NCBI GenBank assembly: GCA_023300185.1
Contig: CP097092.1
Coordinates: 1,018,115 to 1,082,114 of the forward strand
DNA from: Lancefieldella parvula
GTDB lineage: Bacteria; Actinomycetota; Coriobacteriia; Coriobacteriales; Atopobiaceae
Reading direction: 5' to 3'
Length of the DNA stretch: 64,000 bases
Shown: positions 2,195 through 48,496 of the stretch, one piece after another
Layout: every line of letters begins with the position of its first letter
Position numbering within the stretch: the first letter of the stretch is position 1
Notes under the pieces: model-generated
Database searches by the model: none
What the model was told of the DNA's origin: nothing
Seen by the model: only the letters and a program-made list of their open reading frames with translations
Made by a program: the position numbers and the translations under genes

Positions 2195-3034
2195 ATGATT
2201 ATTTTGCTTCCACCATCGTCAGGAAAAACCGCCCCCACCTCGGGGCCTTCTCTTGATCTCTCATCGCTTTTGTTTGGTTCTGAACTCATTACCTGTCGAG
2301 AAGAACTTATCAAAGATCTACAACAGGTATGTTCTGATGCAGACGCAGCTCAGGTGCTTAAAATTGGTCCTAATACCGTCGGTGACATTGCCGACAACCT
2401 AGACGTCTATGAAGCTCCAACCACAACCGCGCTCAATCTCTATACTGGCGTACTTTTTGAGGCTGCAAAATTCAATCAAACACTTGAAAACGTCACGATA
2501 GAAAACACGCAGAAAACGGCCACATTACCAGCAGATATCCTCAACTCAGAAATCATGATTTTCTCTGGTCTTTGGGGTGTTGTAAGACCGCACGATCTTC
2601 TCCCCAACTATAGACTGTCTGCCTCAATCAAGCTGCCCACCGTTGGTAACGTTGCAACTTACTGGAAAAAGCAGCTTAATCCCCTGTTAAACGCTGCTCT
2701 AAAAGATCAAATAGTTGTAGATTGTCGCTCGGGTGAATACAGAAAGATGTGGACGCCTTCGGCAAAGCACCCTAGCGAGCTGCTGCAAGTTGTCGTACAG
2801 CGAGAAGATCCTGGTACGGGAAAGCGCAGTGTTGTATCGCATAACGCAAAACATATGCGTGGTGTACTTGCAGGCGCCCTCTTTGAGCAACGCGTAAACG
2901 GAAAACTTTCTAAAGAAGTTAGCGTGTCTCAAATTGTAGAAATTGCGAGCAATCTACCAGGCGTCATTGATGTTGACGTAAGCACAGCAAATGCTTCTGG
3001 AGAATCAGCGCTTACGCTAGTCACTGGTCGCTAG
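2195..3034 (+). CDS. yaaA: peroxide stress protein YaaA (DUF328/UPF0246)
   Basis: 279 aa; the SGLWGVVRP...HDLLPNYRLS block matches the YaaA family signature YSGLYGLLRPLD. Size is typical. Confidence 0.7.
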   Translation: MIILLPPSSGKTAPTSGPSLDLSSLLFGSELITCREELIKDLQQVCSDADAAQVLKIGPNTVGDIADNLDVYEAPTTTALNLYTGVLFEAAKFNQTLENVTIENTQKTATLPADILNSEIMIFSGLWGVVRPHDLLPNYRLSASIKLPTVGNVATYWKKQLNPLLNAALKDQIVVDCRSGEYRKMWTPSAKHPSELLQVVVQREDPGTGKRSVVSHNAKHMRGVLAGALFEQRVNGKLSKEVSVSQIVEIASNLPGVIDVDVSTANASGESALTLVTGR

Positions 3035-3073
3035 TCAAAACTAAGCCAAAACCTTCAAAATAGACCTGCATAA

Positions 3074-3540
3074 TTGAACTGCCTCCCATTTCTTGGACAC
3101 GAGAAATAGAAAGCAGTTCAAAACACACCTAAGTCGGATAATCTGTCAAAAAGACATATACATGACGCAGAAATTGCCACAAACATGCAGATTATCGTCA
3201 TTAGGTGTGTAAAATGCCCGCATCTGAGCAGATTATCCGACTTAGGTGTGTTCCGTAGATACGAAATTTACCTATAGTTAAATCTTTTATATGACGTTAT
3301 TCATTTTCTAGCATATTAGATGAGGTTTATGCATAAAGATGCATATCAGGTAGTGCGACCGCCTAGCTGCCTGCTATCTTGATTAAGAGCTAGTCGATTC
3401 TTCAGCAGAACCTACCAAAGCTACGCTATTTTGTGAGCCAGGCCTAAAAGCCGACGCTAACACGCTACAGAATCATAATCACCCGCATGTGAACTGCCTC
3501 CCATTTCTTATGTCCAAGAAATGGGAGGCAGTTCAAATTT
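3074..3540 (-). repeat. copy A of an approximately 460-bp non-coding structured repeat element (terminal 44-bp palindromic hairpins, internal triple 22-bp inverted motif), inserted in a split terminator stem
   Basis: Ends are gaactgcctcccatttcttggacacgagaaatagaaagcagttc and gaactgcctcccatttcttatgtccaagaaatgggaggcagttc. The internal motif cacacctaagtcggataatctg occurs three times in alternating orientation. This copy is the near-identical reverse complement of 18992..19450 and 45149..45552. It is flanked by a perfect 16-bp inverted repeat (aaatagacctgcataa at 3058-3073, ttatgcaggtctattt at 3541-3556). Confidence 0.75.
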
Positions 3541-3557
3541 TTATGCAGGTCTATTTA

Positions 3558-3989
3558 TTAACGAATCACAATCCGACTAAGACAGATAAATACAAAAAGA
3601 CCTATACCTGTATTGACAATTTTTCCACCTAAACCCAAATCTATGTACGCTAAACAGTAAATAAATAGAACTGAGAACAACCAAATAACTAGACACAAAC
3701 ATAGACTTTTAATTATCTTTTGAACTGTCCCGTCATTAAGAATGCGATATGCCTTATCAAAGACACAAGCAACAAAAATGCACATTACAAAAGAAACCAA
3801 TGGCACATTACAATAAACATCATCATTAGGAATTAAAATCACAGGAAAGGGAAATCCAAAAATTAAACTAAGCAAACAAAAGCCTAGTATTCTAGCGGGA
3901 TTGAATGCACGCAGGTGTGGCGTTTTTGTTACATTCTCAGATGTGTTATTAGAAAAATCTTTATGTTTAAAAAACGTAAAAGAGCTCAT
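3558..3989 (-). CDS. hypothetical small multi-pass membrane protein (low-GC gene)
   Basis: 143-aa ORF with several hydrophobic helices in an AT-rich stretch. I see no recognisable family. Confidence 0.4.
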   Translation of the reverse strand: MSSFTFFKHKDFSNNTSENVTKTPHLRAFNPARILGFCLLSLIFGFPFPVILIPNDDVYCNVPLVSFVMCIFVACVFDKAYRILNDGTVQKIIKSLCLCLVIWLFSVLFIYCLAYIDLGLGGKIVNTGIGLFVFICLSRIVIR

Positions 3990-4082
3990 CTCTGTACTCC
4001 TTCAGTTTATATAAAGCATATTTTATCTGATACTAAAATTGTTTCTAATATCAACTCAATTTCTTAGATGACATAGCAAAAA

Positions 4083-5216
4083 CTATTTAGCAGAAAATTT
4101 CTGTTTGACCTGCCTCATCAGCCACTGGAACACCATAACTACAACAATTGTGACTACAAAGACAAAGATGCCTCGTACAAAAGCGTTACCAAGCAAGCTG
4201 TACGGGAATCGACCAAGTCTTAGTCCCAAGAAGTTAATAACAGGAATCTGGAACAGATAAACTCCTAAAACACCAGCAGATACCGTGCTGATGCATTTCT
4301 TGACACCATCGGAAAGCTCCTGCAGCCTTGGCTCAAGATTCAGCACAAACAGGAACAAAGATGCCGCTTGTACTACACAAAGGAAGTTTTTAATAGCAAC
4401 TGGATAACTCTGATACGTCATTTCTGGAGTCAATGGGGTTCCAAAGTTGTTAGCAATAAGTCCCCAGACAAACATAGCCGCAGACGAAAGTAAGAAAATT
4501 ACAGCAAGTACTAAATTGTTTTTAGTAAATTTTGGAAGCTCATCGTAATACGTCTTAACGTAATATCCCAGCAGATAGTAGAAAAGGCCATCGCTGTTAA
4601 ACGCAGCCCATCTAAACAGCTGATCAAAGTAAACACCACGAACGCCAATGAACTCAAGAAGCGGCAATCCAAAGCTCACAAAGAGCGTAAGCGCCATAAC
4701 ATAGAGCAGAGTCTCTTTCTTTTGAACTACCAGAGAAAGAACAGGTGTCAAAAGATACAGATACAAAATGGTATAGATGAACCAAAGCGTGCTATTGATA
4801 TTGTTAGTCATAAAACGCTTAATAAAATCAACAACACCAGCACTTGCAGCAACCTCTTCGGCACCCCAAAACTTTGTAGGAAAAAGCACGTACATCAGAT
4901 ACACCACTGCGCTGCCAAAAATAAGCGCCATCAGCGTCTTTCTTGCACGCTTCATAAAGAATGTCTTTGTGGAGTATTTACTTCTATATCCAAGCAAATT
5001 CATACCACTCAGCATAAAAAAGATGGGTACCGCGTAAATAAACGCAGCTTGCAGAGCTAAAGAGAAGGCCCATGTTTTAGTGTGCGCAAGAGAAAAAACG
5101 TTAAGCGAGGTATGCAGCATAACAACAGCAATACCTGCCAAAATGGTAAGAACATCTGCAAAAACAAAGCGCTTCTTGGTAGCAATTGCTTTTGAAGAAA
5201 CTGTAGCTTTTTCCAC
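4083..5216 (-). CDS. acyltransferase family 3 (OafA/OatA-like membrane O-acyltransferase)
   Basis: 377 aa with about 10 TM segments. The N-terminal LTILAGIAVVMLHT and FFMLSGM motifs are typical of the Acyl_transf_3 family. Confidence 0.5.
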   Translation of the reverse strand: MEKATVSSKAIATKKRFVFADVLTILAGIAVVMLHTSLNVFSLAHTKTWAFSLALQAAFIYAVPIFFMLSGMNLLGYRSKYSTKTFFMKRARKTLMALIFGSAVVYLMYVLFPTKFWGAEEVAASAGVVDFIKRFMTNNINSTLWFIYTILYLYLLTPVLSLVVQKKETLLYVMALTLFVSFGLPLLEFIGVRGVYFDQLFRWAAFNSDGLFYYLLGYYVKTYYDELPKFTKNNLVLAVIFLLSSAAMFVWGLIANNFGTPLTPEMTYQSYPVAIKNFLCVVQAASLFLFVLNLEPRLQELSDGVKKCISTVSAGVLGVYLFQIPVINFLGLRLGRFPYSLLGNAFVRGIFVFVVTIVVVMVFQWLMRQVKQKFSAK

Positions 5217-15161: not shown

Positions 15162-17047
15162 CTTCAACTGAAGAACTTGAAAACATAATTGAATCAACTG
15201 AAGCAGAAACTGCTATGGTTCCCTCTGCTCTGACAGGTATTGTAGATGTCAGCAATCTTTCCATTAAAGAGATTGCTTTAGTGCTTTCAAAGAGTATCGG
15301 TGAGTTCAAAAGAGACACTATTCTCACTCCTCTCTTTGTGTTAATTGAGACCATCTTAGAAATCCTCATTCCTTTTAGAACAGCTAATCTTGTTGATACG
15401 CTTCGCACGGGGGCAGAACTAAACGTTGTCATTCAGTCTGGAGCTGTTCTTGCTGCTATGGCAATGCTGTCGCTGCTGTTTGGAACACTATCCGGTATTT
15501 CTGTTGCCAAAGCTTCCACAGGCTTTGCGCGCAATCTTCGCCGTGATATGTTCCGTAATATCCAAAATTTCTCGTTTACCACTATTGATGCATTCTCTTC
15601 GTCATCGTTAGTAACACGCCTTACTACGGATATTTCTAACGTACAGATGGCATTTATGATGCTCATCCGCATGGCCGTTCGTGCTCCATTTATGTTTATT
15701 GCAGCGTTTATTGCTGGCTTTATCATGGGTGGCTGGCTTGCTATTATTTTTGTTGCCGTCATGCCTCTTCTAGGAATTGGTCTCTACTTCATTATTTCTA
15801 GAGTCATTCCTATTTTTAAAAAGGTATTTAAGAGGTACGACGCACTCAATGAATCCGCTGAAGAAAACTTGGCTGGTATCCGCGTTGTTAAGTCATTTGT
15901 AAATGAAAACTTCGAGCGTCAGAAATTTGATAAGGCCTCAGAAGAGCTGCGCGAAGATTTTACAGCAGCCGAGAGGCTCATGGCTCTGAACTCTCCATTT
16001 ATGAACTTCACTATTTACGTGCTGTTTGTCTTCATTCTGTACTTTGGCTCGTACCTGATTGTCTCTTCTCAGGGAACTGCATTTGGCGTTGGACAGCTTT
16101 CTTCGCTTATTACGTATGGCTTTATGATGCTTATGGCACTCATGATGCTTTCCTTTGTCTTTGCCATGATCATCATTGCGGAAGAAGGTGCTCGCCGCAT
16201 CTGTGAGGTACTCCTTGCAACTTCCACTATTAACAACCCAGAAAATCCTCTGACCGAGGTTACAAACGGATCCATTGATTTTGAGAACGTTGGATTCTCC
16301 TATTCCGGTCCAGAGGGTCGAGAAGCCCTGTCTGGTGTAGACCTTCACATCAACTCTGGTGAGGTCATCGGTATCATTGGTGGCACCGGTTCTGCAAAGT
16401 CCACACTGGTGCAGCTTATTCCTCGCCTATACGATGTAACCGCTGGTAGCGTTTCTGTTGGCGGACACAACGTCAAAGACTATGACATTGATACTCTTCG
16501 TGGTGCTGTTGCCATGGTTCTTCAGAAAAACGTTCTCTTTAGCGGTACCATCAAAGAGAATCTCCTGTGGGGTAACCCTGACGCCACCGATGAAGAGATT
16601 CTTGAGGCAGCTCGTCTTGCTCAGGCTGATAGCTTTGTTCAAACCTTCCCTGATAAATATGAGACTCATATCGAGCAGGGTGGCAACAACGTTTCTGGTG
16701 GTCAGAAGCAGAGACTCTGTATTGCGCGCGCGTTGCTTAGACGTCCAAAAGTACTTATTCTTGATGACTCTACCAGCGCTGTTGATACAAAGACAGATTC
16801 TTTAATTCGCGCTGGTCTTAAAGATTTCTTGCCTGATACCACCAAGATCATCATTGCTCAGCGTACTTCCAGTATCGAAGAATCTGACAAGATTATTGTT
16901 CTGGATAACGGTCGCATAAACGCAATTGGTACGCACAAAGAACTCCTGAAAGATAACCCAATCTACCGCGAAGTGTACTTCTCACAGAACAAGCAAAGTG
17001 TTGATGAAAATCAGTCTCAGGAAGGTGAGGTGACTTCTCATGAGTAG
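15146..17047 (+). CDS. ABC exporter, fused permease/ATP-binding subunit (heterodimer partner 1)
   Basis: 6-TM N-terminal domain; Walker A GGTGSAKST; signature LSGGQKQRLCIARAL; 16-nt overlap with marR. Confidence 0.85.
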   Translation: MSEEVTSTEELENIIESTEAETAMVPSALTGIVDVSNLSIKEIALVLSKSIGEFKRDTILTPLFVLIETILEILIPFRTANLVDTLRTGAELNVVIQSGAVLAAMAMLSLLFGTLSGISVAKASTGFARNLRRDMFRNIQNFSFTTIDAFSSSSLVTRLTTDISNVQMAFMMLIRMAVRAPFMFIAAFIAGFIMGGWLAIIFVAVMPLLGIGLYFIISRVIPIFKKVFKRYDALNESAEENLAGIRVVKSFVNENFERQKFDKASEELREDFTAAERLMALNSPFMNFTIYVLFVFILYFGSYLIVSSQGTAFGVGQLSSLITYGFMMLMALMMLSFVFAMIIIAEEGARRICEVLLATSTINNPENPLTEVTNGSIDFENVGFSYSGPEGREALSGVDLHINSGEVIGIIGGTGSAKSTLVQLIPRLYDVTAGSVSVGGHNVKDYDIDTLRGAVAMVLQKNVLFSGTIKENLLWGNPDATDEEILEAARLAQADSFVQTFPDKYETHIEQGGNNVSGGQKQRLCIARALLRRPKVLILDDSTSAVDTKTDSLIRAGLKDFLPDTTKIIIAQRTSSIEESDKIIVLDNGRINAIGTHKELLKDNPIYREVYFSQNKQSVDENQSQEGEVTSHE

Positions 17048-18956
17048 GACAACAGAAACAAACGGTACAAGACCAAAGCTTCCCGTGGGAAAAATTCTTA
17101 CTCGAACCATTAAAATGCTCTGGGAGTTCTATCCTGTCCTTCTCCCTGTAGCACTCCTTGGTGCTGTTATCCAAGCAATTATGCAGTCGCTCCCAAGTGT
17201 CTTCTTGGAGCGAATCCTGTCTATCATCTCCAATTTTATTGATAGTGGTGACTGGAATTCTGCTGAAGGCTTAGTCTTCCAGAACGTGGCTCTTCTCGCC
17301 ACCTTCTACGTCATTGGACTTCTTGCGAATATCATCTCTACCCAGGGTATGGCTATTGTTACCCAGGGAGCTCTGCAAAAATGGCGTTCAAAGATGTTTT
17401 CGCACATGCAGGACTTGCCTATTAGGTACTTTGATACGCACCTCAATGGCGACATCATGAGCTATTACACCAATGATATTGACGCAATGCGCCAGATGAT
17501 TGGTACCAGTCTTCCAAACCTCCTCTTTACCTCTGTGGTTATCATCGCAGTTATATTCATCATGTTTTACTACAGCGCACTTATGGCCATGGTTGTTCTG
17601 TTTGGCTTCTCTTTGATGGGCCTTGCTACTAAAAACCTTGGTGGTAAGTCCGCAAAGAACTTTGTTAAGACTCAGAAAACCACCGCAGATGTAGAGGGAC
17701 ACATTCAGGAAATGATGAATGGCGAGAAGGTCGTTAAGGTCTTTAGTCATGAGGCAGAAACTATTGAATCATTTGACAAAATCAACGATGAGCTGATGGT
17801 TGTTGCAAGAAATGCAAACCTTTATGCCAACACGCTTATGCCTATCCTCAACAATCTGGGCAACATTATGTACGTTGTAGTTGCTGTAGTTTCTGGTGTG
17901 TTTATTACTCTGAACATTCAAAACGTTTCTTTGTCTGGACTGCCTTTCACCATTGCTGTAGCTGTCCCTTTCCTCAACATGACACGTCAGTTCTCCGCCC
18001 AGATTAACCAGATTTCTAGTCAGATTAACTCTGTTGTTATGGGCATCGCTGGTGCTAATCGAGTTTTTGAGCTACTTGATGAACCAGCAGAGACTGAAGA
18101 AGGTTACGTTACTTTAGTCAACGCAGAAACCATTGACGGTAAAGTTCAGGAAGCTGAGTACCGCACCGGTTACTGGGCTTGGAAGTATCCACACAGTGAC
18201 GGCACGGTTACTTACACCCCTGTTAAGGGAGACGTTCGCCTCTTTGATGTTGACTTTGGCTACGAGCCTGGCCACACCGTGTTGCATGATATTTCTCTTT
18301 ATGCAAAACCTGGTCAGAAGGTTGCATTTGTTGGCGCAACAGGCGCTGGTAAAACAACCATTACTAACCTGCTCAACCGCTTCTACGACATCGAAGACGG
18401 CAAAATTCGCTACGATGGCATCAACATTAACAAGATTAGGAAGAGCGCTCTTCGTCGTGCTCTCGGTATTGTTCTGCAAGACGTCAACCTCTTTACGGGT
18501 ACCGTCTTGGATAACATCCGCTACGGCCGTCTTGATGCTACTGATGAGGACTGCGTGAAGGCCGCAAAACTTGCTGGTGCCGATGACTTTATTAGACGTC
18601 TTCCTGACGGCTACCACACTATGCTCAAGGACAACGGCAGCGCCCTCTCCCAAGGACAGCGCCAGCTCATCTCCATTGCTCGCGCCGCGGTTGCAGATCC
18701 ACCCGTCATGATTCTGGACGAGGCTACCTCCAGCATTGACACACGTACTGAAGCAATTGTCCAGCGTGGTATGGACGCTCTGATGTACGACCGCACCACC
18801 TTTGTTATTGCTCACCGTCTTTCTACGGTTAGAAACGCAGATGTTATTGTCGTACTTGACCACGGTCGCATTATTGAGCGCGGTACACACGACGAACTTC
18901 TCGCCAAGCGAGGAACGTACTACCAGCTCTACACAGGTGCCTTTGAGCTTGAGTAA
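17040..18956 (+). CDS. ABC exporter, fused permease/ATP-binding subunit (heterodimer partner 2)
   Basis: Walker A GATGAGKTT; signature LSQGQRQLISIARA; overlaps the upstream subunit by 8 nt. Confidence 0.85.
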   Translation: MSRTTETNGTRPKLPVGKILTRTIKMLWEFYPVLLPVALLGAVIQAIMQSLPSVFLERILSIISNFIDSGDWNSAEGLVFQNVALLATFYVIGLLANIISTQGMAIVTQGALQKWRSKMFSHMQDLPIRYFDTHLNGDIMSYYTNDIDAMRQMIGTSLPNLLFTSVVIIAVIFIMFYYSALMAMVVLFGFSLMGLATKNLGGKSAKNFVKTQKTTADVEGHIQEMMNGEKVVKVFSHEAETIESFDKINDELMVVARNANLYANTLMPILNNLGNIMYVVVAVVSGVFITLNIQNVSLSGLPFTIAVAVPFLNMTRQFSAQINQISSQINSVVMGIAGANRVFELLDEPAETEEGYVTLVNAETIDGKVQEAEYRTGYWAWKYPHSDGTVTYTPVKGDVRLFDVDFGYEPGHTVLHDISLYAKPGQKVAFVGATGAGKTTITNLLNRFYDIEDGKIRYDGININKIRKSALRRALGIVLQDVNLFTGTVLDNIRYGRLDATDEDCVKAAKLAGADDFIRRLPDGYHTMLKDNGSALSQGQRQLISIARAAVADPPVMILDEATSSIDTRTEAIVQRGMDALMYDRTTFVIAHRLSTVRNADVIVVLDHGRIIERGTHDELLAKRGTYYQLYTGAFELE

Positions 18957-18991
18957 CGTTGAGCTTATGTAATGCAAAACGCCTTGTCATC

Positions 18992-19450
18992 GAACTGCCT
19001 CCCATTTCTTGGACATAAGAAAGGGGAGGCAGTTCATATGCGGGGGATTATGATTCTGCAGTGTGTTAGCGTCGGCTTTTAGGCCTGGCCCACAAAATAG
19101 CGCAGCTTTCTTGTGTTCTGCTGAAGAATCGACATGTTCTTAATCAAGATAGCAGGCAGCTAGGCGGTTGCACTATCTGATATGCATCTCTATGCATAAA
19201 CTTCATCTAATATGCTTAAACATGAATAGTCTTATATAAGAAATTTAACTATCAATAAATTCTGTATCTACGGAACACACCTAAGTCAGATAATCTGCTC
19301 AGATGCGGGCATTTTACACATCTAATGACGATAATCTGCATGTTTGTGGTAATTTCAGCGTCATGTATACGTCTTTTTGACAGATTATCTGACTTAGGTG
19401 TGTTTTGAACTGACTCCTATTTCTCGTGTCCAAGAAATGGGAGGTAGTTC
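18992..19450 (+). repeat. copy B of the approximately 460-bp structured repeat element, inserted in a split terminator stem between convergent genes
   Basis: Reverse complement of copy A with a few substitutions. Flanked by a 13-bp perfect inverted repeat aaaacgccttgtc / gacaaggcgtttt (18976-18988 and 19461-19473) followed by a T-run. Confidence 0.75.
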
Positions 19451-19490
19451 ACATCTTAGCGACAAGGCGTTTTTGTGTATGTAACGGTTC

Positions 19491-20240
19491 TTAGGCGAGA
19501 AGAACGTGATGTAGATCTTCTACCGTATCTACAATTGCAACCGCTCCCGCATCAATAAGCTCCTGTTTATTGGTAGTTTTGCCATACAGAACGCCAATGC
19601 ACGGAATCTTATTTGGGAATGCTGCTTCCATATCAAAACGACGGTCGCCAATCATGACGCTTTCAGAAGCTTCAAAGCCAAGCTGGCGCATAACGTGAGC
19701 AATAGCAGAGATTTTATCAGTTGCTGCCTCATCTATTCTTCCAGCATAGGTATCAAGAACACCAATAAGGTTGTTGTCCCTAAGGCCCATCTCTAGCATG
19801 GGCTGATTCTTTGAGCTTGCTACCGCAACCTTTTTACCGGCGGCATGAAGGTCATCAATGAGGTCTCTCATTCCCTCAAAGAGTGGCCATTTTCCTGTAG
19901 TTACATAAAGCTCTCGGTAACGCTTAGTAACCGCAGCAGCGTCCTCATGGCTGAGTCCAAAGACCAGCTCAAACGCATAAGGAAACGGTGGTCCTACAAG
20001 CTTTTTAAGGTCTGATTCTATAAAGTCTGTGTGACCGCAGTCTGTCATTGCCATCTTCGCGGTAGAAACAATGGTGGGCAACGTGTCTGCCATAGTCCCA
20101 TCAAAATCAAAAATAATAAGCGAACGATTCTGCAGATCTGAAATTACATCAGAAGCTACCAGCGATTTATTTGTATCAGTTGCGTTTTGCATTATTGCCA
20201 TGTCAATCCAATCATCTACGTATGTGAGTATACCGTTCAT
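19491..20240 (-). CDS. HAD-IA family hydrolase (phosphatase)
   Basis: Motif I IIFDFDGTMAD; motifs II-IV present; the start may be an internal Met. Confidence 0.7.
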   Translation of the reverse strand: MNGILTYVDDWIDMAIMQNATDTNKSLVASDVISDLQNRSLIIFDFDGTMADTLPTIVSTAKMAMTDCGHTDFIESDLKKLVGPPFPYAFELVFGLSHEDAAAVTKRYRELYVTTGKWPLFEGMRDLIDDLHAAGKKVAVASSKNQPMLEMGLRDNNLIGVLDTYAGRIDEAATDKISAIAHVMRQLGFEASESVMIGDRRFDMEAAFPNKIPCIGVLYGKTTNKQELIDAGAVAIVDTVEDLHHVLLA

Positions 20241-22730: not shown

Positions 22731-25376
22731 TTACAGCTCATTCATTACGCGAACAAGCTTTACAGCATAGTTCTTATCCATTGCCCACGTTCCAGCAAGT
22801 TTACGAATAATGTTGGCTTTCTTAGCAAGAATCCATGCTCCGTAACGAGGGTCAACCTCTTGAGCCTTGCTTGGATCAACGGTCAGTGGCTCATAACCTG
22901 CGTATGCACGAAGGTGCAAAGCCTGTGCACGTAGTCCCTTAAGAACGGTATCAAATGAGAGTCCGCGCGCTCCGTTTCCAGTTGCACCAAGACCACCAAA
23001 GTTGCACTGCTCAGGAAGGACATCGCCACCAAAGCGAAGGTTACCTGTCTCAATCATGACCTGTGCATAGAGAAGTTCTGGACGAACTCCCTCGTCAATT
23101 GCAGCCTGCCATAGCTGGTTTACAAAATCGGTTCCTGTTGCAGCGCCCTTCTCGGCATAGACAGCTGGATAAGCAGAACCTACGCGCTTGTTGAAATCTC
23201 GCTGAAGATCCTCTTTAGTGACAAGAGGTGCTCCAAGAACGCTGGTGCGATCAGAGAAATTACCACGAGTTGGCTCAATTGGAGAACCGTCATCAGCTGG
23301 AGTGTTGTTAGCGTCTCTGTTATCTCCGCCATTACCACCGTTGTTGTTATCTGCAGACTTGATGTTAAGAACGCCATTTGCATCTGCGTAAGCAACACGA
23401 CCATCAGGAAGAGTGACATTTTGAGAGCGCAACAATCCATTACTCTGGTCGAAGTAATAGTATGAGCCGTTAATTACCTGAAGACCAAAGAGAGCACCGT
23501 GCTCTTTTGTATTTGGATCAAAGTACCATGTCTTGCCATTTGGAGTATTAAACCAACCAGAAACAAGAGCACCATTAGATTGAGCCCAAGCCCAGACATT
23601 ATTAGGCATCTCTACCCAGTCATTAGCCTTCATGCCGCTATTGGCATCAACGTAGTATGAGCCGCTAGCTGTGATAACAAGTCCAGTCTTCATCAGTGGA
23701 TATTCAGCATTCTCATCAAAGTAGAACCACTTGCCGTTAGACATGTACTTCCAGCCAGAGTAAAGAGTACCGTCGTCATTAAGCCAGATCCAATCTCCAT
23801 TAGCAAGATTGACCCAACCGCCGTAAATCAGACCACGATTCTGATCAATGTAGTACTTCTTGTTTCCGTCAGTCATAAGACCAAAGGTAGCGTGATAGCT
23901 GTTGTTAGCATCAAAGTAGAACCACTTGCCATTTGGCATGTACTTCCAACCTGCGTGCAGAGAGCCATCTCCTGTCGCCCAAGACCAAGAATCATCAGCC
24001 TGGTGGACCCAGGAATTCTTTGCCATTCCATTAGTCTCATCAAAGTAATAAGACTTACCTGAAATGGTCCTCTGGCCAAGAGCGGCAGCGTTATGAGGTG
24101 CAGTTGCGTCAAAGTACCAAACTTTACCATTTGGCGTAGTAAACCAGCCAGAAACAGCAATTCCCCTAGCATCAAAATAATGCCAGCCATCATCGTCTTT
24201 AAGCCATCTGCTTACGTAAGCAGTGTCGTTGTCATCAGAATACATCCATCCTTCAGCAGCTCTGCGCCAGCCATAGGATTCTTTAATCTTAGCGTCATAG
24301 TTTGTCTGGCGGGTTACTTCTTGACCATCAGAAGATCTTGCTGTGATATACAGGGTGTAACGGCCGCTAGCAGGAAGTGTAAAGGTAGATGAAGTTGCCG
24401 TAGTGTTAGATGCAACCGTTACCTTTGTTCCATCTGGACCAACATAGCTGTAAGTAAATGTTGCGTCAGTAACTACGCCAGTAAGAACTGGCTTTAAAGT
24501 GACATCGTTATCCTTTTGAGCTACTGAAACACTACTCATGCTCCACCAGGTATCAGAGCTGTACATTTCCCAAATTGCCCATGCATCTGCCCAGCCAATG
24601 TAGTCAACCTTGGAATTATCGCCAAGGTCTTTAAACTCAGCAGCATGTGCTGGATTAGAGATGAATTGATGCTCAATAATTACGCCAAGAATTCCCTTTT
24701 GACGAGCATAGCGGACAATACCGTAATAATCGGACTCATCGCCATTCTCGTAATAGTCTGTTCCGTATTGGTCGTTGTAGCCACGTTCTGTTGCGCCATC
24801 ACCGCGGGTAACAATACCAACTTTATTTCTGAGGTAATAGTTAACCTTGCCGGCAAAAACTTGACCGGAGAGATAAAGATCATAGTTGTAGCTTACCTTA
24901 TGAGGAACAAGTACCTCTGAGCCCGTCGCAGATGCAGGGCCGGCATTGTAGTGAAGCGAGATGATGGCACAAGCGTTTGCATCAACAGCACGCTGTACGC
25001 GCGTCTTGATCGATGGATCCTCGTGTTCTCCACGAACAACAACAACCTGTACACCCCATTTTTCCAGATACTTCTTGGCGTACATGGCAGTTGCCCAAGC
25101 CAGATCTCCCTCTTTGAGCCCAAAGTAGGTAGCACCTGGATCTCTGCCTTCAAGGCCATCACTGTGACCTGGGTCAAGCGCAATAGGTCTGCCAGTTGCA
25201 CGAGCAAGTGCTACGGCATCTTTTAGTGATTCACTCTGGATAATGTTTCCTTGGGCATCCATTGTGGTGTAGGTAGTTGCATATGCGCTTTGAACTGTTG
25301 TTGCAAACAATGCTGCGACAACAAAGAACAAAACAGCAAGCAATTTACCGCGAGTATTAAATAAGCTGCGTTTCAT
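22731..25376 (-). CDS. secreted bifunctional peptidoglycan hydrolase: N-terminal N-acetylmuramoyl-L-alanine amidase (Amidase_3), cell-wall-binding repeats, C-terminal glucosaminidase domain
   Basis: Signal peptide MKRSLFNTRGKLLAVLFFVVAALFATTVQSAYA. Amidase_3-like IALDPGH...DPGATY block. At least 10 copies of the approximately 20-aa repeat GWKYMPNGKWFYFD / SGWFTTPNGKVWYFD. G/N-rich linker. C-terminal YAQVMIETGNLRFGG...NFGGLGATG block (mannosyl-glycoprotein endo-beta-N-acetylglucosaminidase family). Confidence 0.75.
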   Translation of the reverse strand: MKRSLFNTRGKLLAVLFFVVAALFATTVQSAYATTYTTMDAQGNIIQSESLKDAVALARATGRPIALDPGHSDGLEGRDPGATYFGLKEGDLAWATAMYAKKYLEKWGVQVVVVRGEHEDPSIKTRVQRAVDANACAIISLHYNAGPASATGSEVLVPHKVSYNYDLYLSGQVFAGKVNYYLRNKVGIVTRGDGATERGYNDQYGTDYYENGDESDYYGIVRYARQKGILGVIIEHQFISNPAHAAEFKDLGDNSKVDYIGWADAWAIWEMYSSDTWWSMSSVSVAQKDNDVTLKPVLTGVVTDATFTYSYVGPDGTKVTVASNTTATSSTFTLPASGRYTLYITARSSDGQEVTRQTNYDAKIKESYGWRRAAEGWMYSDDNDTAYVSRWLKDDDGWHYFDARGIAVSGWFTTPNGKVWYFDATAPHNAAALGQRTISGKSYYFDETNGMAKNSWVHQADDSWSWATGDGSLHAGWKYMPNGKWFYFDANNSYHATFGLMTDGNKKYYIDQNRGLIYGGWVNLANGDWIWLNDDGTLYSGWKYMSNGKWFYFDENAEYPLMKTGLVITASGSYYVDANSGMKANDWVEMPNNVWAWAQSNGALVSGWFNTPNGKTWYFDPNTKEHGALFGLQVINGSYYYFDQSNGLLRSQNVTLPDGRVAYADANGVLNIKSADNNNGGNGGDNRDANNTPADDGSPIEPTRGNFSDRTSVLGAPLVTKEDLQRDFNKRVGSAYPAVYAEKGAATGTDFVNQLWQAAIDEGVRPELLYAQVMIETGNLRFGGDVLPEQCNFGGLGATGNGARGLSFDTVLKGLRAQALHLRAYAGYEPLTVDPSKAQEVDPRYGAWILAKKANIIRKLAGTWAMDKNYAVKLVRVMNEL

Positions 25377-26782: not shown

Positions 26783-28507
26783 ATGCCCATGAAAAAGAAG
26801 ACATGTTTGTCCAGCAGGCCTTCAATGCAAAAGCTCATTGCAGTTGCTTCGTTGAGTGCAGCTCTACTTTGCGGACTTCACGCTACTCCTGCTCTTGCAG
26901 AAACTACTGATACATCCACAGTAAGTGCTCCTGAATCAACTTCTAAATCCTATTATCCAAAGTGGAAAAAAGTTGATGGAAAGGTATATTTTTATACTGA
27001 AGATGGAACTATTCTAAAAAGTCAGTGGATTACTTATGACAGTCATCAATATTATGTAGATGAAACAGGTGCAGCAGCATCTGGTTTCTATACTACACCT
27101 GATGGCAAAACCTGGTATTTTGAGCCAGAGACATGGCTACCGCACGCTAGATATGGCTTATTTTATATTCTCGAAAATAAAAATACTCCTAATTATCACT
27201 ACACTTACTACTACGTAGATAAAGATAACGGCTTGATTAAAAACAATTGGGTTAAAACAGATAAAGGTTGGAGCTGGGCCGGAGCTGATGGACGTTTTAC
27301 TGAAGGATGGTTTACTGATCCTAATGGTATAATCTGGTATTTTACTGGTAAAACTGATTCGGATGTTCCGGTTATTGCTAAATCAGTTCCGGTCGATGGA
27401 AAGCTGTACTTCTTTGATACTTCGACAGGACTTTTACGAAATTCTTGGGTAAATATGGGTCACGGTGTAGAAGCTTGGTACTGGGCTGGTCCAGATGGCG
27501 CTGCTATCTCTGGCTGGTTTAAAACTCCAGATGGCAAAACTTGGTATGCCGACCCAGAAGATTACAATCGAGTAGTAATGGGCGGAATAGATATTGATGG
27601 TAAATATTATTTCTTTGATCACAGTAATGGCCTTGTTACCCATGGTTGGATTGAGGATGATGGTGAATGGGCTTGGATTGAAACAGTAGGCTCTGTTTAT
27701 TCTGGCTGGAAACACATGCCTAATGGTAAGTGGTTCTACTTTGATGAAAATGGAGAATTTCCTCTGCTTAAGAAAGGTGTCTTCACTATTTCCAGCGGAA
27801 CTTATTACGTTGACGCAAATCAAGGAATGACCGCTAACAATTGGGTACAGCTCCCTAATGGTGGTTGGGCTTGGGCACAGTCGAGTGGTGCATTTGCCTC
27901 TGGTTGGTACACCACTCCAAATGGCAAAACTTGGTATTTTGATCCATCAGATCCGCAGCATCCTGCACTTATTGGAGACGCTGAAATTAACGGTCAATCA
28001 TATTATTTTGATTCAGGCTATGGTCTTCTGAAAAATGGATGGGTTCATAGAGCTGATGGTTCTTGGTCTTGGGCTGGAGAGAGTGGGGTGCTTCAATCAG
28101 GTTGGAAGCATATGCCTAATGGCAAGTGGTTCTACTTTGATACCAAAGATTCCAAGCACCGTATACTTGTAGGTGTCATCCAAACTTCTAGTGGAACTTA
28201 TTATATTGATGAGTCTGCTGGAATGACTGCTAATAATTGGGTACAGCTCCCAGAAGGCGGTTGGGCTTGGGCACAGTCAAGTGGCGCATTTGCTTCTGGT
28301 TGGTTCACCACACCAAATGGAAAAACTTGGTACTTTGATCCAGCAAAACCAAGCCATCCTGCTTATACTGGAGAACACACTATTGATGGTAAAGACTATT
28401 ACTTTGACGCAGGATATGGTCTTGCTCGCAATCAATGGATTACCCGTTCCGATGGCGTAAGACGCTGGGCTGGACCAGACGGTGTACTTACTGAATACAA
28501 GCGCTAA
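26783..28507 (+). CDS. secreted protein composed of cell-wall-binding (YG/GW choline-binding-type) repeats
   Basis: Signal peptide ...LIAVASLSAALLCGLHATPALA, then at least 14 repeats such as SGWKHMPNGKWFYFD and SGWYTTPNGKTWYFD. No obvious catalytic domain. Confidence 0.7.
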   Translation: MPMKKKTCLSSRPSMQKLIAVASLSAALLCGLHATPALAETTDTSTVSAPESTSKSYYPKWKKVDGKVYFYTEDGTILKSQWITYDSHQYYVDETGAAASGFYTTPDGKTWYFEPETWLPHARYGLFYILENKNTPNYHYTYYYVDKDNGLIKNNWVKTDKGWSWAGADGRFTEGWFTDPNGIIWYFTGKTDSDVPVIAKSVPVDGKLYFFDTSTGLLRNSWVNMGHGVEAWYWAGPDGAAISGWFKTPDGKTWYADPEDYNRVVMGGIDIDGKYYFFDHSNGLVTHGWIEDDGEWAWIETVGSVYSGWKHMPNGKWFYFDENGEFPLLKKGVFTISSGTYYVDANQGMTANNWVQLPNGGWAWAQSSGAFASGWYTTPNGKTWYFDPSDPQHPALIGDAEINGQSYYFDSGYGLLKNGWVHRADGSWSWAGESGVLQSGWKHMPNGKWFYFDTKDSKHRILVGVIQTSSGTYYIDESAGMTANNWVQLPEGGWAWAQSSGAFASGWFTTPNGKTWYFDPAKPSHPAYTGEHTIDGKDYYFDAGYGLARNQWITRSDGVRRWAGPDGVLTEYKR

Positions 28508-30817
28508 ATGAGTTTGAACTGCTCTTTATTACCTGGATTTATTGGAGTTAAAACAATGGAGAAGAAGATGCGTTTTCCCTACAGGCCTTCTACACAAAAG
28601 CTTATTGCAGTTGCTTCGCTAAGTGCAGCTCTGCTTTGTGGCTTCCATGCTGCTCCCGCTTTTGCAGAAACAACTGATACGTCTACAGTAAATGCTCCAG
28701 TTGTAACAACTGAAACTACCGCAACAGCTGAAAATGCTTCTCCTACAGCAGCTGAAAGCTCTCAGCCTGCTTCACCTGCTTCACCTGCAGCACCAACGAC
28801 AACTGCTCCAACAACAAGCCAGACACCTGCTGCCCCAACAGAGAATACAACGTCAACTCCTCAATCTTCTGGATGGAGACAAGAAAACGGCCAATTCCAC
28901 TATTACAAAGAAGATGGAACACTTGTTACAAGTCAGTGGATCAAAGATGATTCTGGTTGGCACTATGTAGATGGCACTGGAGCCGCTGTAGCGGGTTGGT
29001 TTACTACCCCTAATGGGAAAACCTGGTATTTTAATCCAAATGACCCATTACATGCAGCAGTCCTTGGCGAAACTGAAATTGATGGTAAGTTTTACTACTT
29101 CGATTCAATAACAGGTCTTATTAAAAATAACTGGGTATATCGTTCAGCAAGTTCTTGGTCATGGGCTACTGAAGATGGTTCTTACTATTCAGGTTGGAAG
29201 CATATGCCTAACGGCAAGTGGTTCTATTTTGATCCGGAAGCACCTCGTCATCATATGTTAATTGGAACGATTCAGGTTTCTGGTACCTCATATTACATTG
29301 ATGAATATGCAGGTATGATTTCTAACAGTTGGATTCAACTACCTACTCGTAAGTGGGCTTGGGCTCAAAAAAATGGCGCTCTTGCCTCTGGTTGGTTTAA
29401 CACACCAAATGGTAAAACTTGGTACTTTGATCCATCTGTTCCAGAGCATCCAGCGCTTGTTGGCAACGTCGAAATTAACGGCACATATTATTATTTCGAT
29501 GAAAATGATGGAATCCTTAGAAATAGCTGGATTCACAATGATGATGGTTCATGGTCTTGGGTAGATTCCTATGGCTCATTCTATTCAGGTTGGAAACATT
29601 TCCCAAATGGTAAATGGTTTTACTTTGATCCAGAAGACTCAATCCATCGCATGAAAACTGGACTTTTCCAACTTCCCAGTGGTTCGTATTACGTTGATGA
29701 AAATGCTGGTATGACTTCAAGTAATTGGGTGTCCCTACCAGACGGAAATTTTTCCTGGGCTCAATCTAGCGGCGCGCTTGTCTCTGGATGGTTTACTACT
29801 CCTGGCAATAAAACATGGTACTTTAATCCATCTTCAATTGACCATGCCGCATACGTTGGAGAGCATTCAATTGATGGAAAGAACTACTACTTTGATAAAA
29901 GCTATGGTCTAGCAAAAAATGAATGGGTTACTCTTTCAAATGGTGTAAAACGTTGGGCAGGTCCAGACGGAGTACTGACTGGATTCATTTCTCCCGAAGG
30001 AGTCTTCTCTACAGATGACGGTTCACAGCCAACAGGAACGGTACATCTTCCTGGCTTGACTGTAAACGTTGGCTCCGACCATAAAATTAAGACGGGATGG
30101 ATAAAAGAAAATAGTAAAGATTTTTACTATCTTTCTAATGGTGCACCAGCAGATGGATGGCTTAATATTCATGGAACTTGGTACTATTTTAGTTCCAATG
30201 GAGAAAAACAAACTGGTTGGATTAATTCAAAGGGCAGTTGGTACTTCCTTGATTCTGACGGCAAGATGAAAACCGGATGGATTAAAGATAACGGCAAGGA
30301 CTACTATCTCAGTAATAATGGTTCCATGCAAACTGGTTATGTAACCTGGGGTGGAAAACTGTATTGGTCAGCGGCTGATGGCGCCATGGAGGAGCAACCT
30401 TGCTACTACCCTGATATGTATCGTTATGCACAGAACTATTACAGTGCTACTAACTGGCTCATCCAAATTGATACTACTGGCAATCGCTTTGCTGTATACA
30501 GGGGCTCACACGGTAACTGGGTTGTTTGGTACGAATGGCAGTGCACCACAGGAGCGCCAGGCATGTGGACTCCTCATGGTCAATTTACCGTAGGTAACAA
30601 GGGTCTCTACTTTGGCTCTGGCTTTAGATGCTGGTATTACACGACCATTTCTGGTGAGTATCTTATTCACTCCATTCTCTATAACTCCGACGGTTATACC
30701 GTCCGTGATGGTAGGCTTGGATACAACGGTTCCCACGGTTGCGTACGTCTTGCAACAGAAAACGCTAAGTGGGTTTATGACAACATTCCTTATGGAACTA
30801 AGATTGTTATTTGGTAA
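28508..30817 (+). CDS. secreted L,D-transpeptidase (YkuD domain) with P/T/A-rich linker and cell-wall-binding repeats; paralog of the upstream gene (start may be the Met at 28556)
   Basis: Signal peptide nearly identical to the upstream gene. Pro/Thr/Ala-rich linker. Same repeat family. C-terminal YkuD block ...HGQFTVGNKG...GYNGSHGCVRLATENAKWVY (catalytic SHGC). Confidence 0.75.
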   Translation: MSLNCSLLPGFIGVKTMEKKMRFPYRPSTQKLIAVASLSAALLCGFHAAPAFAETTDTSTVNAPVVTTETTATAENASPTAAESSQPASPASPAAPTTTAPTTSQTPAAPTENTTSTPQSSGWRQENGQFHYYKEDGTLVTSQWIKDDSGWHYVDGTGAAVAGWFTTPNGKTWYFNPNDPLHAAVLGETEIDGKFYYFDSITGLIKNNWVYRSASSWSWATEDGSYYSGWKHMPNGKWFYFDPEAPRHHMLIGTIQVSGTSYYIDEYAGMISNSWIQLPTRKWAWAQKNGALASGWFNTPNGKTWYFDPSVPEHPALVGNVEINGTYYYFDENDGILRNSWIHNDDGSWSWVDSYGSFYSGWKHFPNGKWFYFDPEDSIHRMKTGLFQLPSGSYYVDENAGMTSSNWVSLPDGNFSWAQSSGALVSGWFTTPGNKTWYFNPSSIDHAAYVGEHSIDGKNYYFDKSYGLAKNEWVTLSNGVKRWAGPDGVLTGFISPEGVFSTDDGSQPTGTVHLPGLTVNVGSDHKIKTGWIKENSKDFYYLSNGAPADGWLNIHGTWYYFSSNGEKQTGWINSKGSWYFLDSDGKMKTGWIKDNGKDYYLSNNGSMQTGYVTWGGKLYWSAADGAMEEQPCYYPDMYRYAQNYYSATNWLIQIDTTGNRFAVYRGSHGNWVVWYEWQCTTGAPGMWTPHGQFTVGNKGLYFGSGFRCWYYTTISGEYLIHSILYNSDGYTVRDGRLGYNGSHGCVRLATENAKWVYDNIPYGTKIVIW

Positions 30818-41504: not shown

Positions 41505-41540
41505 CTGGCGAGAAGATCGGTCTTCTCGCCAGGTTTTTCT
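41505..41540 (+). terminator. rho-independent terminator (perfect 13-bp stem ctggcgagaagat / atcttctcgccag plus T-run)
   Basis: Read directly from the sequence, immediately after the pepC-1 stop. Confidence 0.6.
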
Positions 41541-44751: not shown

Positions 44752-45124
44752 CATGCAAAGTGGACCAGACAACCGCGGAGTGCCCGTCCAGCTAAGTGGA
44801 AGGGTGCTATGAGGAAAGTCCGGGCTCCACAGGGCAGGATGCTGGCTAACGGCCAGGCGGGGTGACCCGACGGAAAGTGCCGCAGAAAAGAAGACTCTCA
44901 CCTGCGCATTCGCGTAAAGAGAAAAGCTGAAACGGTAGTGTAAGAGACTACCAGCATGCTGGCAACAGCGTGGCTTGGTAAACCCCATCCGGAGCAAACG
45001 CAAATAGGAGCGCTATGGTGTGGCCCGCACTGCGCTCGGGTTGCGCGCTAGAGACCAGTAGCAATGCTGGTAGTAGATAAATGGTTGTCCGCGACAGAAC
45101 CCGGCTTATACGTCCACTTTGCCT
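44752..45124 (+). ncRNA. rnpB: RNase P RNA, bacterial type A
   Basis: GAGGAAAGTCCGGGCTCC (P4 5' strand), GGTAAACCCCATCCGGAGCAA, ACAGAACCCGGCTTAT (P4 3' strand). The P1 helix gcaaagtggac / gtccactttgc closes the molecule. Confidence 0.9.
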
Positions 45125-45148
45125 ACTGAATGCAAATCCCCCGTGCAT

Positions 45149-45552
45149 TTTCTGTGCGGGGGATTTTGATTCTGCAGCGTGTTAGCGTCGGCTTTTAGGC
45201 CTGGCGCACAAAATAGCGCAGCTTTGGTAGGTTCTGCCGAAGAATCGACATGTTCCTAATCAAGATAGCCAGGCAGCTAGGCGGTCGCACTACCTGATAT
45301 GCATCTCTATGCATAAACTTCATCTAATATGCTTGAAAATGAATAGACGAAATATAAAAAATCTAACTATAGGTAAATTCCGCTTCTAGGGAACACACCT
45401 AAGTCGGATATTCTGCTCAGATTGCGGGCATTTTACACACCTAATGACGATAATCTGCATGTTTGAGGTAATTTCCGCGTAATGTATACGTCTTTTTGAC
45501 AGATTATCCGACTTAGGTGTGTTTTGAACTGCCTCCTATTTCTCGTGTCCAA
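45149..45552 (+). repeat. copy C of the structured repeat element (variant: lacks the left terminal hairpin)
   Basis: Same orientation as copy B. The body is near-identical. It starts ...gcgggggattttgattctgcag and ends with the 44-bp hairpin gaactgcctcctatttctcgtgtccaagaaatgggaggcggttc. The 16-bp direct repeat ttctgtgcgggggatt is present at both borders. It lies 25 nt after the rnpB end. Confidence 0.7.
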
Positions 45553-45567
45553 GAAATGGGAGGCGGT

Positions 45568-46320
45568 TCAATTTCTGTGCGGGGGATTATCTTGTACGAG
45601 GGCATTTTTAGCAAGATATTGTCTGCGACAGCCTACACGACGTTGCAAAATCACATAGCGATTAAGATTGTTGTCTTTGCCATCTGCACTAAATTGCGCA
45701 CAAACTTGCACGTCAGAGCCAAGACTTCCAAGAAGCTCATCAAGCTCCTCTTGCGAGAAATGATGACAATAGCGCCAGGTATTGGCCTTATCTTGCCAGC
45801 CAATCAGATAGTCATGCTCCTCAAGTTCTGATGCATCTATACCCAGCGCACGCAGCCCTTGAGCAGTGGTTTCTTGAGCTTTAGCAGCAAGTTTTTGGCT
45901 GTTCAAAAACTGCCAGAAAGAAACGCACACAAAGCCGCCAGGTTTTGTTTTCTCTAGCAGAGTGCGCAGAAGCTGGGTTCTCTTCTTTGCGCCAGGTACA
46001 TGATGCAAAAAGCCAAACGCAACCACTAAATCACAGGCCGGAACAGTTAACTCAGAAGAGAGCGTGTTATCAAGCAGACTCTTTATCACATCTAGCTCAA
46101 TAAATGCCAGCTCAGAGACATGAGCGCCTACGTCTCCACTCTCCACAAGAGGCTTGCAATTATCTACAGCAAAATACTCTGCAGGAACAAACTCTGCCGC
46201 ATCATACAAAAAGCGAGCAAAGCGCAGGTTTCCGCAACCCATATCAAGTACAGAGAGCTTCTCGCCAGATACAAGCTGAGGCATGGCTTCCAGACACTTC
46301 TGCCAGCCCTGCCAAGGCAT
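45568..46320 (-). CDS. class I SAM-dependent methyltransferase
   Basis: Motif I VLDMGCGNLRFA; acidic motif II; motif III; 250 aa. Confidence 0.7.
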   Translation of the reverse strand: MPWQGWQKCLEAMPQLVSGEKLSVLDMGCGNLRFARFLYDAAEFVPAEYFAVDNCKPLVESGDVGAHVSELAFIELDVIKSLLDNTLSSELTVPACDLVVAFGFLHHVPGAKKRTQLLRTLLEKTKPGGFVCVSFWQFLNSQKLAAKAQETTAQGLRALGIDASELEEHDYLIGWQDKANTWRYCHHFSQEELDELLGSLGSDVQVCAQFSADGKDNNLNRYVILQRRVGCRRQYLAKNALVQDNPPHRN

Positions 46321-48366: not shown

Positions 48367-48496
48367 AGGGGACGTGGCCTTACACCTCTAGACAAGCTTC
48401 ATACGCTTACTTCATACGTCGCAAAAAATGCCGAGAAGACCGTTGATCTTCTCGGCATATTCATAAGCGCCACCCTCTCCTGGACGCAAATGGATC

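Follow-up and report, generated by a model that had tools for sequence, protein, structure and literature searches.

A miniature relative of an IS3-family insertion sequence within terminator hairpins of Lancefieldella parvula

In a window of 64,000 nucleotides from the Lancefieldella parvula contig CP097092.1 (the window being the whole 64-kb stretch that was analysed), a 461-bp non-coding repeat, here called copy B, lies between an ABC exporter gene and a HAD hydrolase gene, and the two arms of what looks like one single transcription terminator stand on either side of it. The locus thus raises the question how a repeat came to lie inside a hairpin, and whether such hairpins are sought out by the element or are simply the places in which it is tolerated. 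A first-pass annotation of the sequence had argued for targeted insertion into hairpin loops. [quoted passage not shown]

The host terminator and its empty site

The two arms, AAAACGCCTTGTC (18976-18988, preceded by an A-run) and GACAAGGCGTTTT (19461-19473), are 13 nt long each, are 100% complementary and stand 472 nt apart, and the second of them leads into a T-run (19461-19474 with the first of its bases). For a 13-nt complement to stand at both ends of an element by chance, the odds are approximately 4^-13. This inverted repeat, which the first-pass annotation had pointed out, is located in a spacer that measures 534 bp between the stop codons of two convergent genes. The ABC exporter gene (17040-18956, forward strand, 638 aa) is an open reading frame (ORF) that reads toward the terminator, and the Pfam domains ABC_membrane and ABC_tran are found on the orthologous gene. 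Its convergent neighbour is the HAD hydrolase gene (19491-20240, reverse strand, 249 aa).

Contigs that encode exactly the HAD protein of the window were looked up, which yielded 10 places. In six of these metagenome contigs (L001, L002, L003, L005, L009 and L010), the hairpin is uninterrupted and reads gcaaaacgccttgtc-ATCTTAGC-gacaaggcgttttt. The intergenic spacer in these empty contigs is 70 bp long and contains ...gcaaaacgccttgtcATCTTAGCgacaaggcgttttt... (...aaaacgccttgtcATCTTAGCgacaaggcgttttt...), with an intact 13-bp stem, an 8-nt loop and a T-run. The element is present in one of the ten (L004), and three contigs end inside the terminator. Since the arms are contiguous in the six element-free contigs, they are host sequence, as had been proposed from the window alone.

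As measured in L001 and L002, the flanks share 96.6-97.9% identity with the window, and the BLAST alignments of these two contigs break exactly at 19452 and 18991, with an overlap of 3-4 nt. When the filled site, ccttgtCAT-element-CATcttagc, is compared with the empty site, ccttgtCATcttagc, it is seen that the insertion duplicated 3 bp (CAT). The left copy of this target-site duplication occupies 18988-18990 and the right copy 19452-19454, the latter being followed by what remains of the original loop, cttagc (19455-19460). The duplicated CAT consists of the last base of the stem and the first two bases of the loop, such that the break lies at the 5′ edge between stem and loop and not in the middle of the loop. 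The earlier statement that the element sits within the loop thus holds insofar as the hairpin is split, but for copy B it has to be corrected with respect to the exact point of entry.

With six empty sites and one filled site, copy B is polymorphic within the species, which suggests that the insertion is recent and that selection has had little time to act on it. The relatives do not lack hairpin potential at this position, nor do all of them carry the element. The B site is also filled in L162, a metagenome-assembled genome (MAG) of another species-level genome labelled Atopobium, and MAGs that bear the label uncultured Atopobium sp. are ~95% identical to the window.

The window holds a second full copy of the element, copy A (3075-3535, reverse strand), which is 91% identical to copy B and is bordered by an AAT duplication (3072-3074 and 3536-3538). 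It splits another hairpin, the arms of which, AGACCTGCATAA (3062-3073) and TTATGCAGGTCT (3541-3552), differ in sequence from those around copy B, in agreement with the first-pass annotation. An empty site for copy A was not found, as 10 of 10 related contigs were filled. The rebuilt empty sites of A and B fold as stems of 16 bp and 9(+8) bp, respectively, with A- and T-runs flanking them, and both hosts can thus be described as terminator-like stems. Apart from these two split hairpins, approximately 9 other strict terminator-like hairpins in the window are intact.

One might object that the inverted repeat on either side is part of the element, be it in the form of long variable terminal repeats or as a palindrome that is generated locally. 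All that speaks for such an origin is that, at first sight, the inverted repeats look nested, and its probability is negligible in the face of arms that are different at every site and that form a contiguous hairpin in strains without the element.

A non-coding element with the ends of an IS3-family insertion sequence

What, then, is the element that was inserted? Copy B (18991-19451, forward strand) has a GC content of 40%, contains no ORF longer than 39 aa, and ends in terminal inverted repeats whose 45-nt arms (18992-19036 and 19406-19450) are 87% complementary. The left hairpin is found in Collinsella and some Atopobium genomes as the left end of an IS of 1446-1456 bp (one copy, whose left boundary is uncertain, measures 1384 bp). 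With L165 as the reference IS (1454 bp, at 2915-4368), both ends of the MITE match the left end of the IS at 86-95% identity, including the region of the start codon. Specifically, the left terminal hairpin (46 bp, 18991-19036, forward strand) corresponds to the left inverted repeat of the IS plus an inverted copy of it (MITE 2-52 against IS 2-50, 86%), and the right terminal hairpin (46 bp, 19406-19451, forward strand) is of the same left-end type in inverted orientation (MITE 424-461 against IS 38-1, 95%). The IS left inverted repeat within each MITE end is TGAACTGCCTCCCATTTCTTGGAC, and each end is a 46-bp palindrome. The core between them (369 bp, 19037-19405, forward strand) shows no similarity to the IS interior. 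Because both ends are of the IS left-end type and the core has no match in the IS, the element is a MITE in which either terminus is of the left-end type and extended to a full palindrome. The possibility that the core is what an internal deletion left of the IS was considered and rejected, because nothing is similar beyond the ends.

Three copies of the MITE are present in the 64 kb, and at least 20 distinct sites were found in public contigs. Between 23 different sites, the copies share 87-96% identity (mean 91%), evenly along the whole unit. An exact 3-bp duplication borders 16 of 27 MITE sites, or 13 of 20 after de-duplication. IS and MITE also occur together, as the IS in L165 and the MITE in L111 come from one MAG (JAGZUI01).

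The parent IS shows every IS3-family feature that was tested, as does the 461-bp element every MITE feature. It reads TGAACTGCCTCCCATTTCTTGGACAyGAGAAATGGGAGGCtttttATG ... GTCCAAGATTTGGGACGCAGTTCA, and its ends, TGAACTGC...GCAGTTCA, are imperfect inverted repeats of the form TG...CA. OrfA carries the helix-turn-helix domains HTH_28/HTH_23 and OrfB the domains rve/rve_2/HTH_21, and the two overlap at an A7 slippery site (TTAAAAAAA) in an arrangement for -1 frameshifting. Against the NCBIfam model for IS3 family transposases (NF033516), OrfB scores 236 bits, with a cut-off of 160. A 3-bp duplication is found at 13 of 19 IS sites (11 of 15 de-duplicated), and one site has 4 bp. The ribosome-binding site of the transposase gene, GGGAGG, is located in the inner arm of the IS left hairpin, 6 nt before the ATG, and the hairpin probably hides it in read-through transcripts.

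With respect to distribution, the matches listed from a hairpin scan are nearly all in Atopobium, Collinsella and other Coriobacteriia. At the nucleotide level, the IS of Atopobium (50% GC) is 68% identical to that of Collinsella (65% GC), and this identity together with the difference in GC suggests a long residence in each host. A further IS3 relative with similar ends and 57.5% OrfB identity is carried by the Bifidobacterium breve plasmid pMP7017 (L339, record 177035-178522), whereas the nearest non-actinobacterial IS3 matches are ~40% identical. The plasmid copy lies inside a perfect bidirectional terminator hairpin, AAAAAACAGGGGCGGCCAC-TAAC-CGGTGGCCGCCCCTGTTTTTTT, with an AAC duplication. 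Since this relative too sits in a terminator loop, the habit belongs to the clade and extends to Bifidobacterium.

The stable hairpins at both ends had led us to a first guess of an IS200/IS605 or REPIN element, since such hairpins are likewise found in those families, where a Y1 (HUH) transposase reads terminal hairpins on single-stranded DNA. This guess was dropped on account of the 3-bp duplication and the IS3 parent. Members of those families lack a target duplication and lie beside a fixed tetra- or pentanucleotide, whereas the duplication seen here is 3 bp long and variable. Moreover, the hairpins match the left end of an IS with a DDE transposase at 86-95% identity, and no Y1 gene was seen beside any copy. 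We therefore regard such an origin as extremely improbable.

A different view would be that the 461-bp unit is a module of the host, either a small RNA gene or a 3′ untranslated region/terminator cassette, which was spread by recombination and for which the terminator context is its function. The even conservation of the whole unit over 23 sites would agree with this, though it would agree equally well with recent spread. A further point in favour of a host module is an internal long hairpin in the core (19274-19404, forward strand) with perfect 24-bp arms (19274-19297 and 19381-19404) and an 83-nt loop, which is kept in nearly all of the 23 copies whose pairs were counted and which displays a few compensatory changes; at one position, the pair is A-T in 10 copies, G-C in 7 and an intermediate in 6. 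This covariation is weak evidence for either a structural constraint or a nested older element. A third copy of the MITE, moreover, is fixed next to the RNase P RNA gene. However, a host module would not be expected to have clean 3-bp duplications, an exact empty site and ends of the IS type. In addition, Rfam returned no family for the element, neither at the gathering score over the whole window nor at E values up to 10 over the region, with only sub-threshold microRNA-like noise on the hairpins, and a simple promoter/terminator scan of 18800-19600 gave no promoter- or terminator-like site. A host module hence is very unlikely, and we continue with the MITE as the identity of copy B.

Hairpin loops as sites of insertion

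If copy B is a MITE, is its position in a terminator accidental? Insertion sites were collected from two scans (at least 120 stretches each), of which one looked for the hairpin in one genome for each species and the other looked in metagenomes for a conserved pattern of the core, and we used as sites, among the matches listed, complete IS, MITE and solo 46-bp hairpin insertions with both flanks. The empty site was rebuilt for each of them, and an insertion was counted as lying in a loop if, in the RNAfold structure, it was located in, or no more than 2 nt from, the loop of a hairpin with 8 bp or more. By this measure, 36 of 49 sites are in a hairpin loop (p = 1e-23), as are 27 of 36 sites after strict de-duplication (p = 2e-18). 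This amounts to ~75%, as compared to 233 of 2000 (11.7%) in a null of random non-coding positions from one 64-kb window with RNAfold-predicted hairpins. Under a stricter criterion, which demands at least 7 uninterrupted pairs, the figures are 16 of 33 against 56 of 1500. The loop criterion replaced an earlier statistic of flank pairing with a chimeric-flank null, which carried no information, since GC-rich arms and A/T runs will pair in any case.

An exact 3-bp duplication accompanies 31 of the 49 sites (25 of 36 de-duplicated), with duplication centres within 4.5 nt of the dyad. The duplicated triplets themselves are diverse, with 20 kinds among 30 and a bias only for A/T, and the only consensus in the flanks is that the left arm is rich in C and the right arm in G. 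At 17 of 24 MITE sites, an A-run stands to the left and a T-run to the right, and the outer flanks of IS left ends are A-rich in 63 of 98 cases. Most target sites thus are bidirectional terminators, and the insertions showed no preferred orientation with respect to the T-run. The proposal of a targeted insertion into hairpin loops, made on the basis of copies A and B, is supported by these counts.

The enrichment could nevertheless have come about in another way, namely by essentially random insertion followed by selection that removes all copies except those in terminator loops, there being few other neutral places in compact genomes and the terminator being spared. It is true that only surviving insertions were seen, that bidirectional terminators between convergent genes, a classic safe haven, make up most of the sites, and that the RNA fold of the whole element could keep the stem closed. 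However, only 11.7% of non-coding positions qualify under the very criterion by which approximately three quarters of the insertions do. In the B spacer, ~20 nt before the stem and ~15 nt after it would have been no more harmful as a landing place, yet the loop was the target. The clustering of duplications around the dyad is equally difficult to reconcile with random insertion, as is the fact that copy B is still polymorphic. Furthermore, the same pattern is found for the 1.45-kb IS, the 461-bp MITE, the 46-bp hairpin and the 57%-identical relative from Bifidobacterium. Lastly, the palindrome specificity of the IS3 members IS1397 and ISKpn1 was ascribed, on experimental grounds, to the transposase, according to work cited in PMC1525189, and the transposase is reported as the determinant elsewhere as well (PMC3184786). 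Random insertion with subsequent selection is therefore unlikely in our judgement, and the data favour targeting over selection.

IS3-family elements produce their transposase OrfAB by frameshifting, are copied out and pasted in through a circle with abutted ends, and carry out a short staggered strand transfer. For the targeted insertion of copy B, this background lends itself to the following scenario. The MITE, having no gene of its own, would be served in trans by the OrfAB DDE transposase of the 1.45-kb IS, presumably by way of the usual copy-out/paste-in circle. The transposase would insert the element, with a stagger of 3 bp, where a DNA palindrome has its tip, and palindromes in these genomes would nearly always be intrinsic terminator stem-loops between genes. 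Copy B would have entered the bidirectional terminator that the ABC exporter gene has in common with the HAD gene, at the 5′ boundary between stem and loop, pushing the terminator arms apart and duplicating CAT. Since the targets share nothing else, the site may be read by its shape or symmetry and not by its sequence, be it as a cruciform, a single-stranded hairpin or a bendable palindrome. An insertion into the loop might be tolerated through pairing of the element's ends in the RNA, by which the arms of the host would rejoin next to the U-run. In predicted folds of whole-element transcripts from either strand, the left end indeed pairs with the right end and the host arms close the base next to the U-run, with minimum free energies of -201 and -186 kcal/mol (z = -10.9 and -13.1).

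Several observations weigh against this scenario or parts of it. First of all, targeting is inferred from insertions that survived, and the null to which they were compared stems from a single window and from predicted hairpins. About one quarter of the sites are without a clear hairpin or without a duplication, even if some of these are evident recombinants (L197, L286), and one MITE site (L145/L247) is at the base of a hairpin and not in its loop. No copy of the IS was found within the 64-kb window. As for the RNA, the minimum free energy fold describes an equilibrium, whereas during transcription the left hairpin would form first, and neither of the terminal hairpins is followed by a U-run. 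No compact terminator was detected in the filled spacer.

Rearranged copies, precedents and implications

Besides the IS and the full MITE, the 46-bp hairpin is also found on its own. One such solo hairpin (L046 6542-6587, IMG/VR contig 3300045988_135200) is located in the terminator of a prophage endolysin gene, beside a tRNA attachment site, and has a TTT duplication. It was the one useful result of a search of viral contigs with a 19-nt degenerate end pattern, which otherwise gave mostly chance matches. Another viral contig (L019) carries the IS itself, with 79.5% OrfB identity. Phages may ferry the IS or solo hairpins between hosts.

A number of copies depart from the standard form. Copy C (about 45155-45570, forward strand) is a partial MITE, ~90-95% identical to copy B, in which the left hairpin is absent. 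The RNase P RNA gene (44757-45124) lies directly before it, and the first bases of copy C fall within the 3′ arm of the rnpB terminator, which itself is intact. The core and right hairpin of copy C are enclosed by a 16-nt direct repeat, TTCTGTGCGGGGGATT (45150-45165 and 45573-45588), which corresponds to the loop plus 3′ arm of the rnpB terminator, repeated beyond the right hairpin, and which is 20 nt long in L121. Such a repeat is unlike the normal 3-bp duplication, and its two copies show some concerted change. The same layout (45134-45588) is present in L121 and at least five other metagenome contigs (including L227, L295, L302 and L318), while the predicted empty site of copy C was absent from the metagenome contigs. 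For the three proteins neighbouring copy C that were looked up, no record was found. One neighbour is a 250-aa ORF (45568-46320, reverse strand), whose stop codon TGA (45568-45570) is provided by the last bases of the MITE right hairpin and whose final codons cross the right copy of the direct repeat. Judging from the sequence, the insertion of copy C may have reshaped the C-terminus of this putative gene.

In every standard MITE copy, the left hairpin is followed on its inner side by TATGCGGGTGATTAT, a sequence similar to the direct repeat of copy C, and left hairpins are often partly deleted (L222, L246, L327). There are hints, therefore, that the core may have been captured from host DNA or that copies are rearranged by recombination. 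One locus, in different genomes, holds a full MITE (L224), a MITE without the left hairpin (L259/L243/L338) or a solo hairpin (L179/L149). At L259/L338, the TATGCGGGTGATTAT-type sequence pairs with an upstream complement, and the left flank resembles an inverted remnant of the left inner segment of another MITE. This suggests that recombination led to decay, or else that elements inserted, in nested fashion, into hairpins of their own kind. At two further sites (L286 2990-3520 and L197 4623-6071), the flanks are mismatched and there is no duplication; L286 combines the right flank of the copy C site with an unrelated left flank. Both look like rearrangements by recombination between dispersed copies.

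Some other features of the window may be mentioned here. The 8-mer TTCTCGCC occurs at 37 places, where 2.1 are expected (e.g., 41505-41532, 48428-48458, 18898-18905 and 19494-19501), and TTCTCGCCAG occurs 11 times, where 0.16 are expected. The 8-mer is found on both strands in genic as well as intergenic DNA, and inverted pairs make terminator-like hairpins. The over-representation of TTCTCGCC resembles a genome signature of the DNA-uptake-sequence or Chi type. Upstream of the HAD gene, a gene with an amidase/glucosaminidase domain stands beside a TPR gene, and two oppositely oriented genes (23500-24200, reverse strand, and 26800-30000, forward strand) contain long arrays of repeats of the cell-wall/choline-binding type (~65-130 codons).

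As to precedents for the habit of the IS and its MITE, the IS3-family members IS1397 and ISKpn1 insert into the loop of palindromic units and create duplications of 3-4 bp. They resemble the IS described here in belonging to the IS3 family (kinship of the transposases was compared at the family level) and in choosing a palindrome instead of a sequence motif. However, their targets form one repeated, sequence-conserved family, the REP sequences, whereas the terminators targeted here are present in single copy and unrelated in sequence, every stem being different. Furthermore, the hosts are Actinomycetota and not enterobacteria, and the IS has given rise to a 461-bp MITE and to 46-bp solo hairpins.

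IS1272/TnSha1 of the IS1182 family in Staphylococcus targets DNA hairpins, many of them confirmed terminators, without specificity for primary sequence; it makes a blunt cut in the stem, part of the hairpin is deleted, and no target duplication arises (PMC4923244). In our case, the IS family is another one; nothing of the hairpin is lost, the element enters at the loop, and a duplication of 3 bp arises. Taken together, IS1397/ISKpn1 (REP loops) and IS1272/TnSha1 (terminator hairpins, with deletion) are the closest precedents.

Bacterial MITEs such as Correia, RUP, ERIC, MITEAba12 and others are small and non-coding, share terminal repeats with an IS, cause a duplication, are present in many intergenic copies and have strong RNA structure (PMC10969869). 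The 461-bp element is like them in all these traits. It differs in that both of its ends come from the same (left) end of the IS, that its core is unrelated to the IS, and that its site is defined by structure. Each terminal repeat, moreover, is a complete palindrome, which provides four potential transposase-binding ends, and a 46-bp mini-version with two ends exists.

Other mobile elements land on intrinsic terminators or inverted repeats, too. IS1630 of the IS30 family in Mycoplasma fermentans duplicates the whole inverted repeat (~19-26 bp), and group IIC introns reverse-splice just after the stem. Neither matches a 3-bp loop duplication by a DDE transposase of the IS3 family. The hallmarks of REPIN/RAYT and IS200/IS605 elements, i.e., no duplication, a fixed short motif and a linked Y1 transposase, are not seen here either. 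The literature searched, which did not include ISfinder, contained no account of this IS, of its MITE, or of an IS3 member that is aimed at generic terminators.

A more far-reaching interpretation, which we find conceivable but somewhat doubtful, is that a clade of IS3 DDE transposases in Coriobacteriia and Bifidobacterium reads the tip of any stable hairpin or cruciform by its structure, independently of sequence, such that terminators become a safe landing pad throughout the genome. Self-complementary ends would then allow a 46-bp element with two ends, which would rank among the smallest mobile DNAs, as well as composite MITEs in which two hairpin insertions enclose captured host DNA, and a pairing of the ends in the RNA that rebuilds the terminator of the host.

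In practical terms, very many of the scan matches listed lie ~20-50 nt from the end of a contig, and the IS and its MITE may explain recurrent contig breaks in MAGs of Collinsella and Atopobium. The element also provides a ready marker for strain typing. It further makes for strain-level differences in 3′ ends and 3′ untranslated regions, since some strains have a split terminator between the ABC exporter and HAD genes and others an intact one.

More generally, our likely reading of copy B would mean that Actinomycetota common in the human gut and mouth harbour a transposon lineage whose niche is the terminator loop. Its target would be a structural one that is found after most operons, where the damage is minimal, and the lineage would offer a natural system in which to study how a DDE transposase reads the shape of DNA as opposed to its sequence. 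Should it be true that the pairing of its two ends keeps termination going, this would be a parasite that repairs the very element it interrupts.

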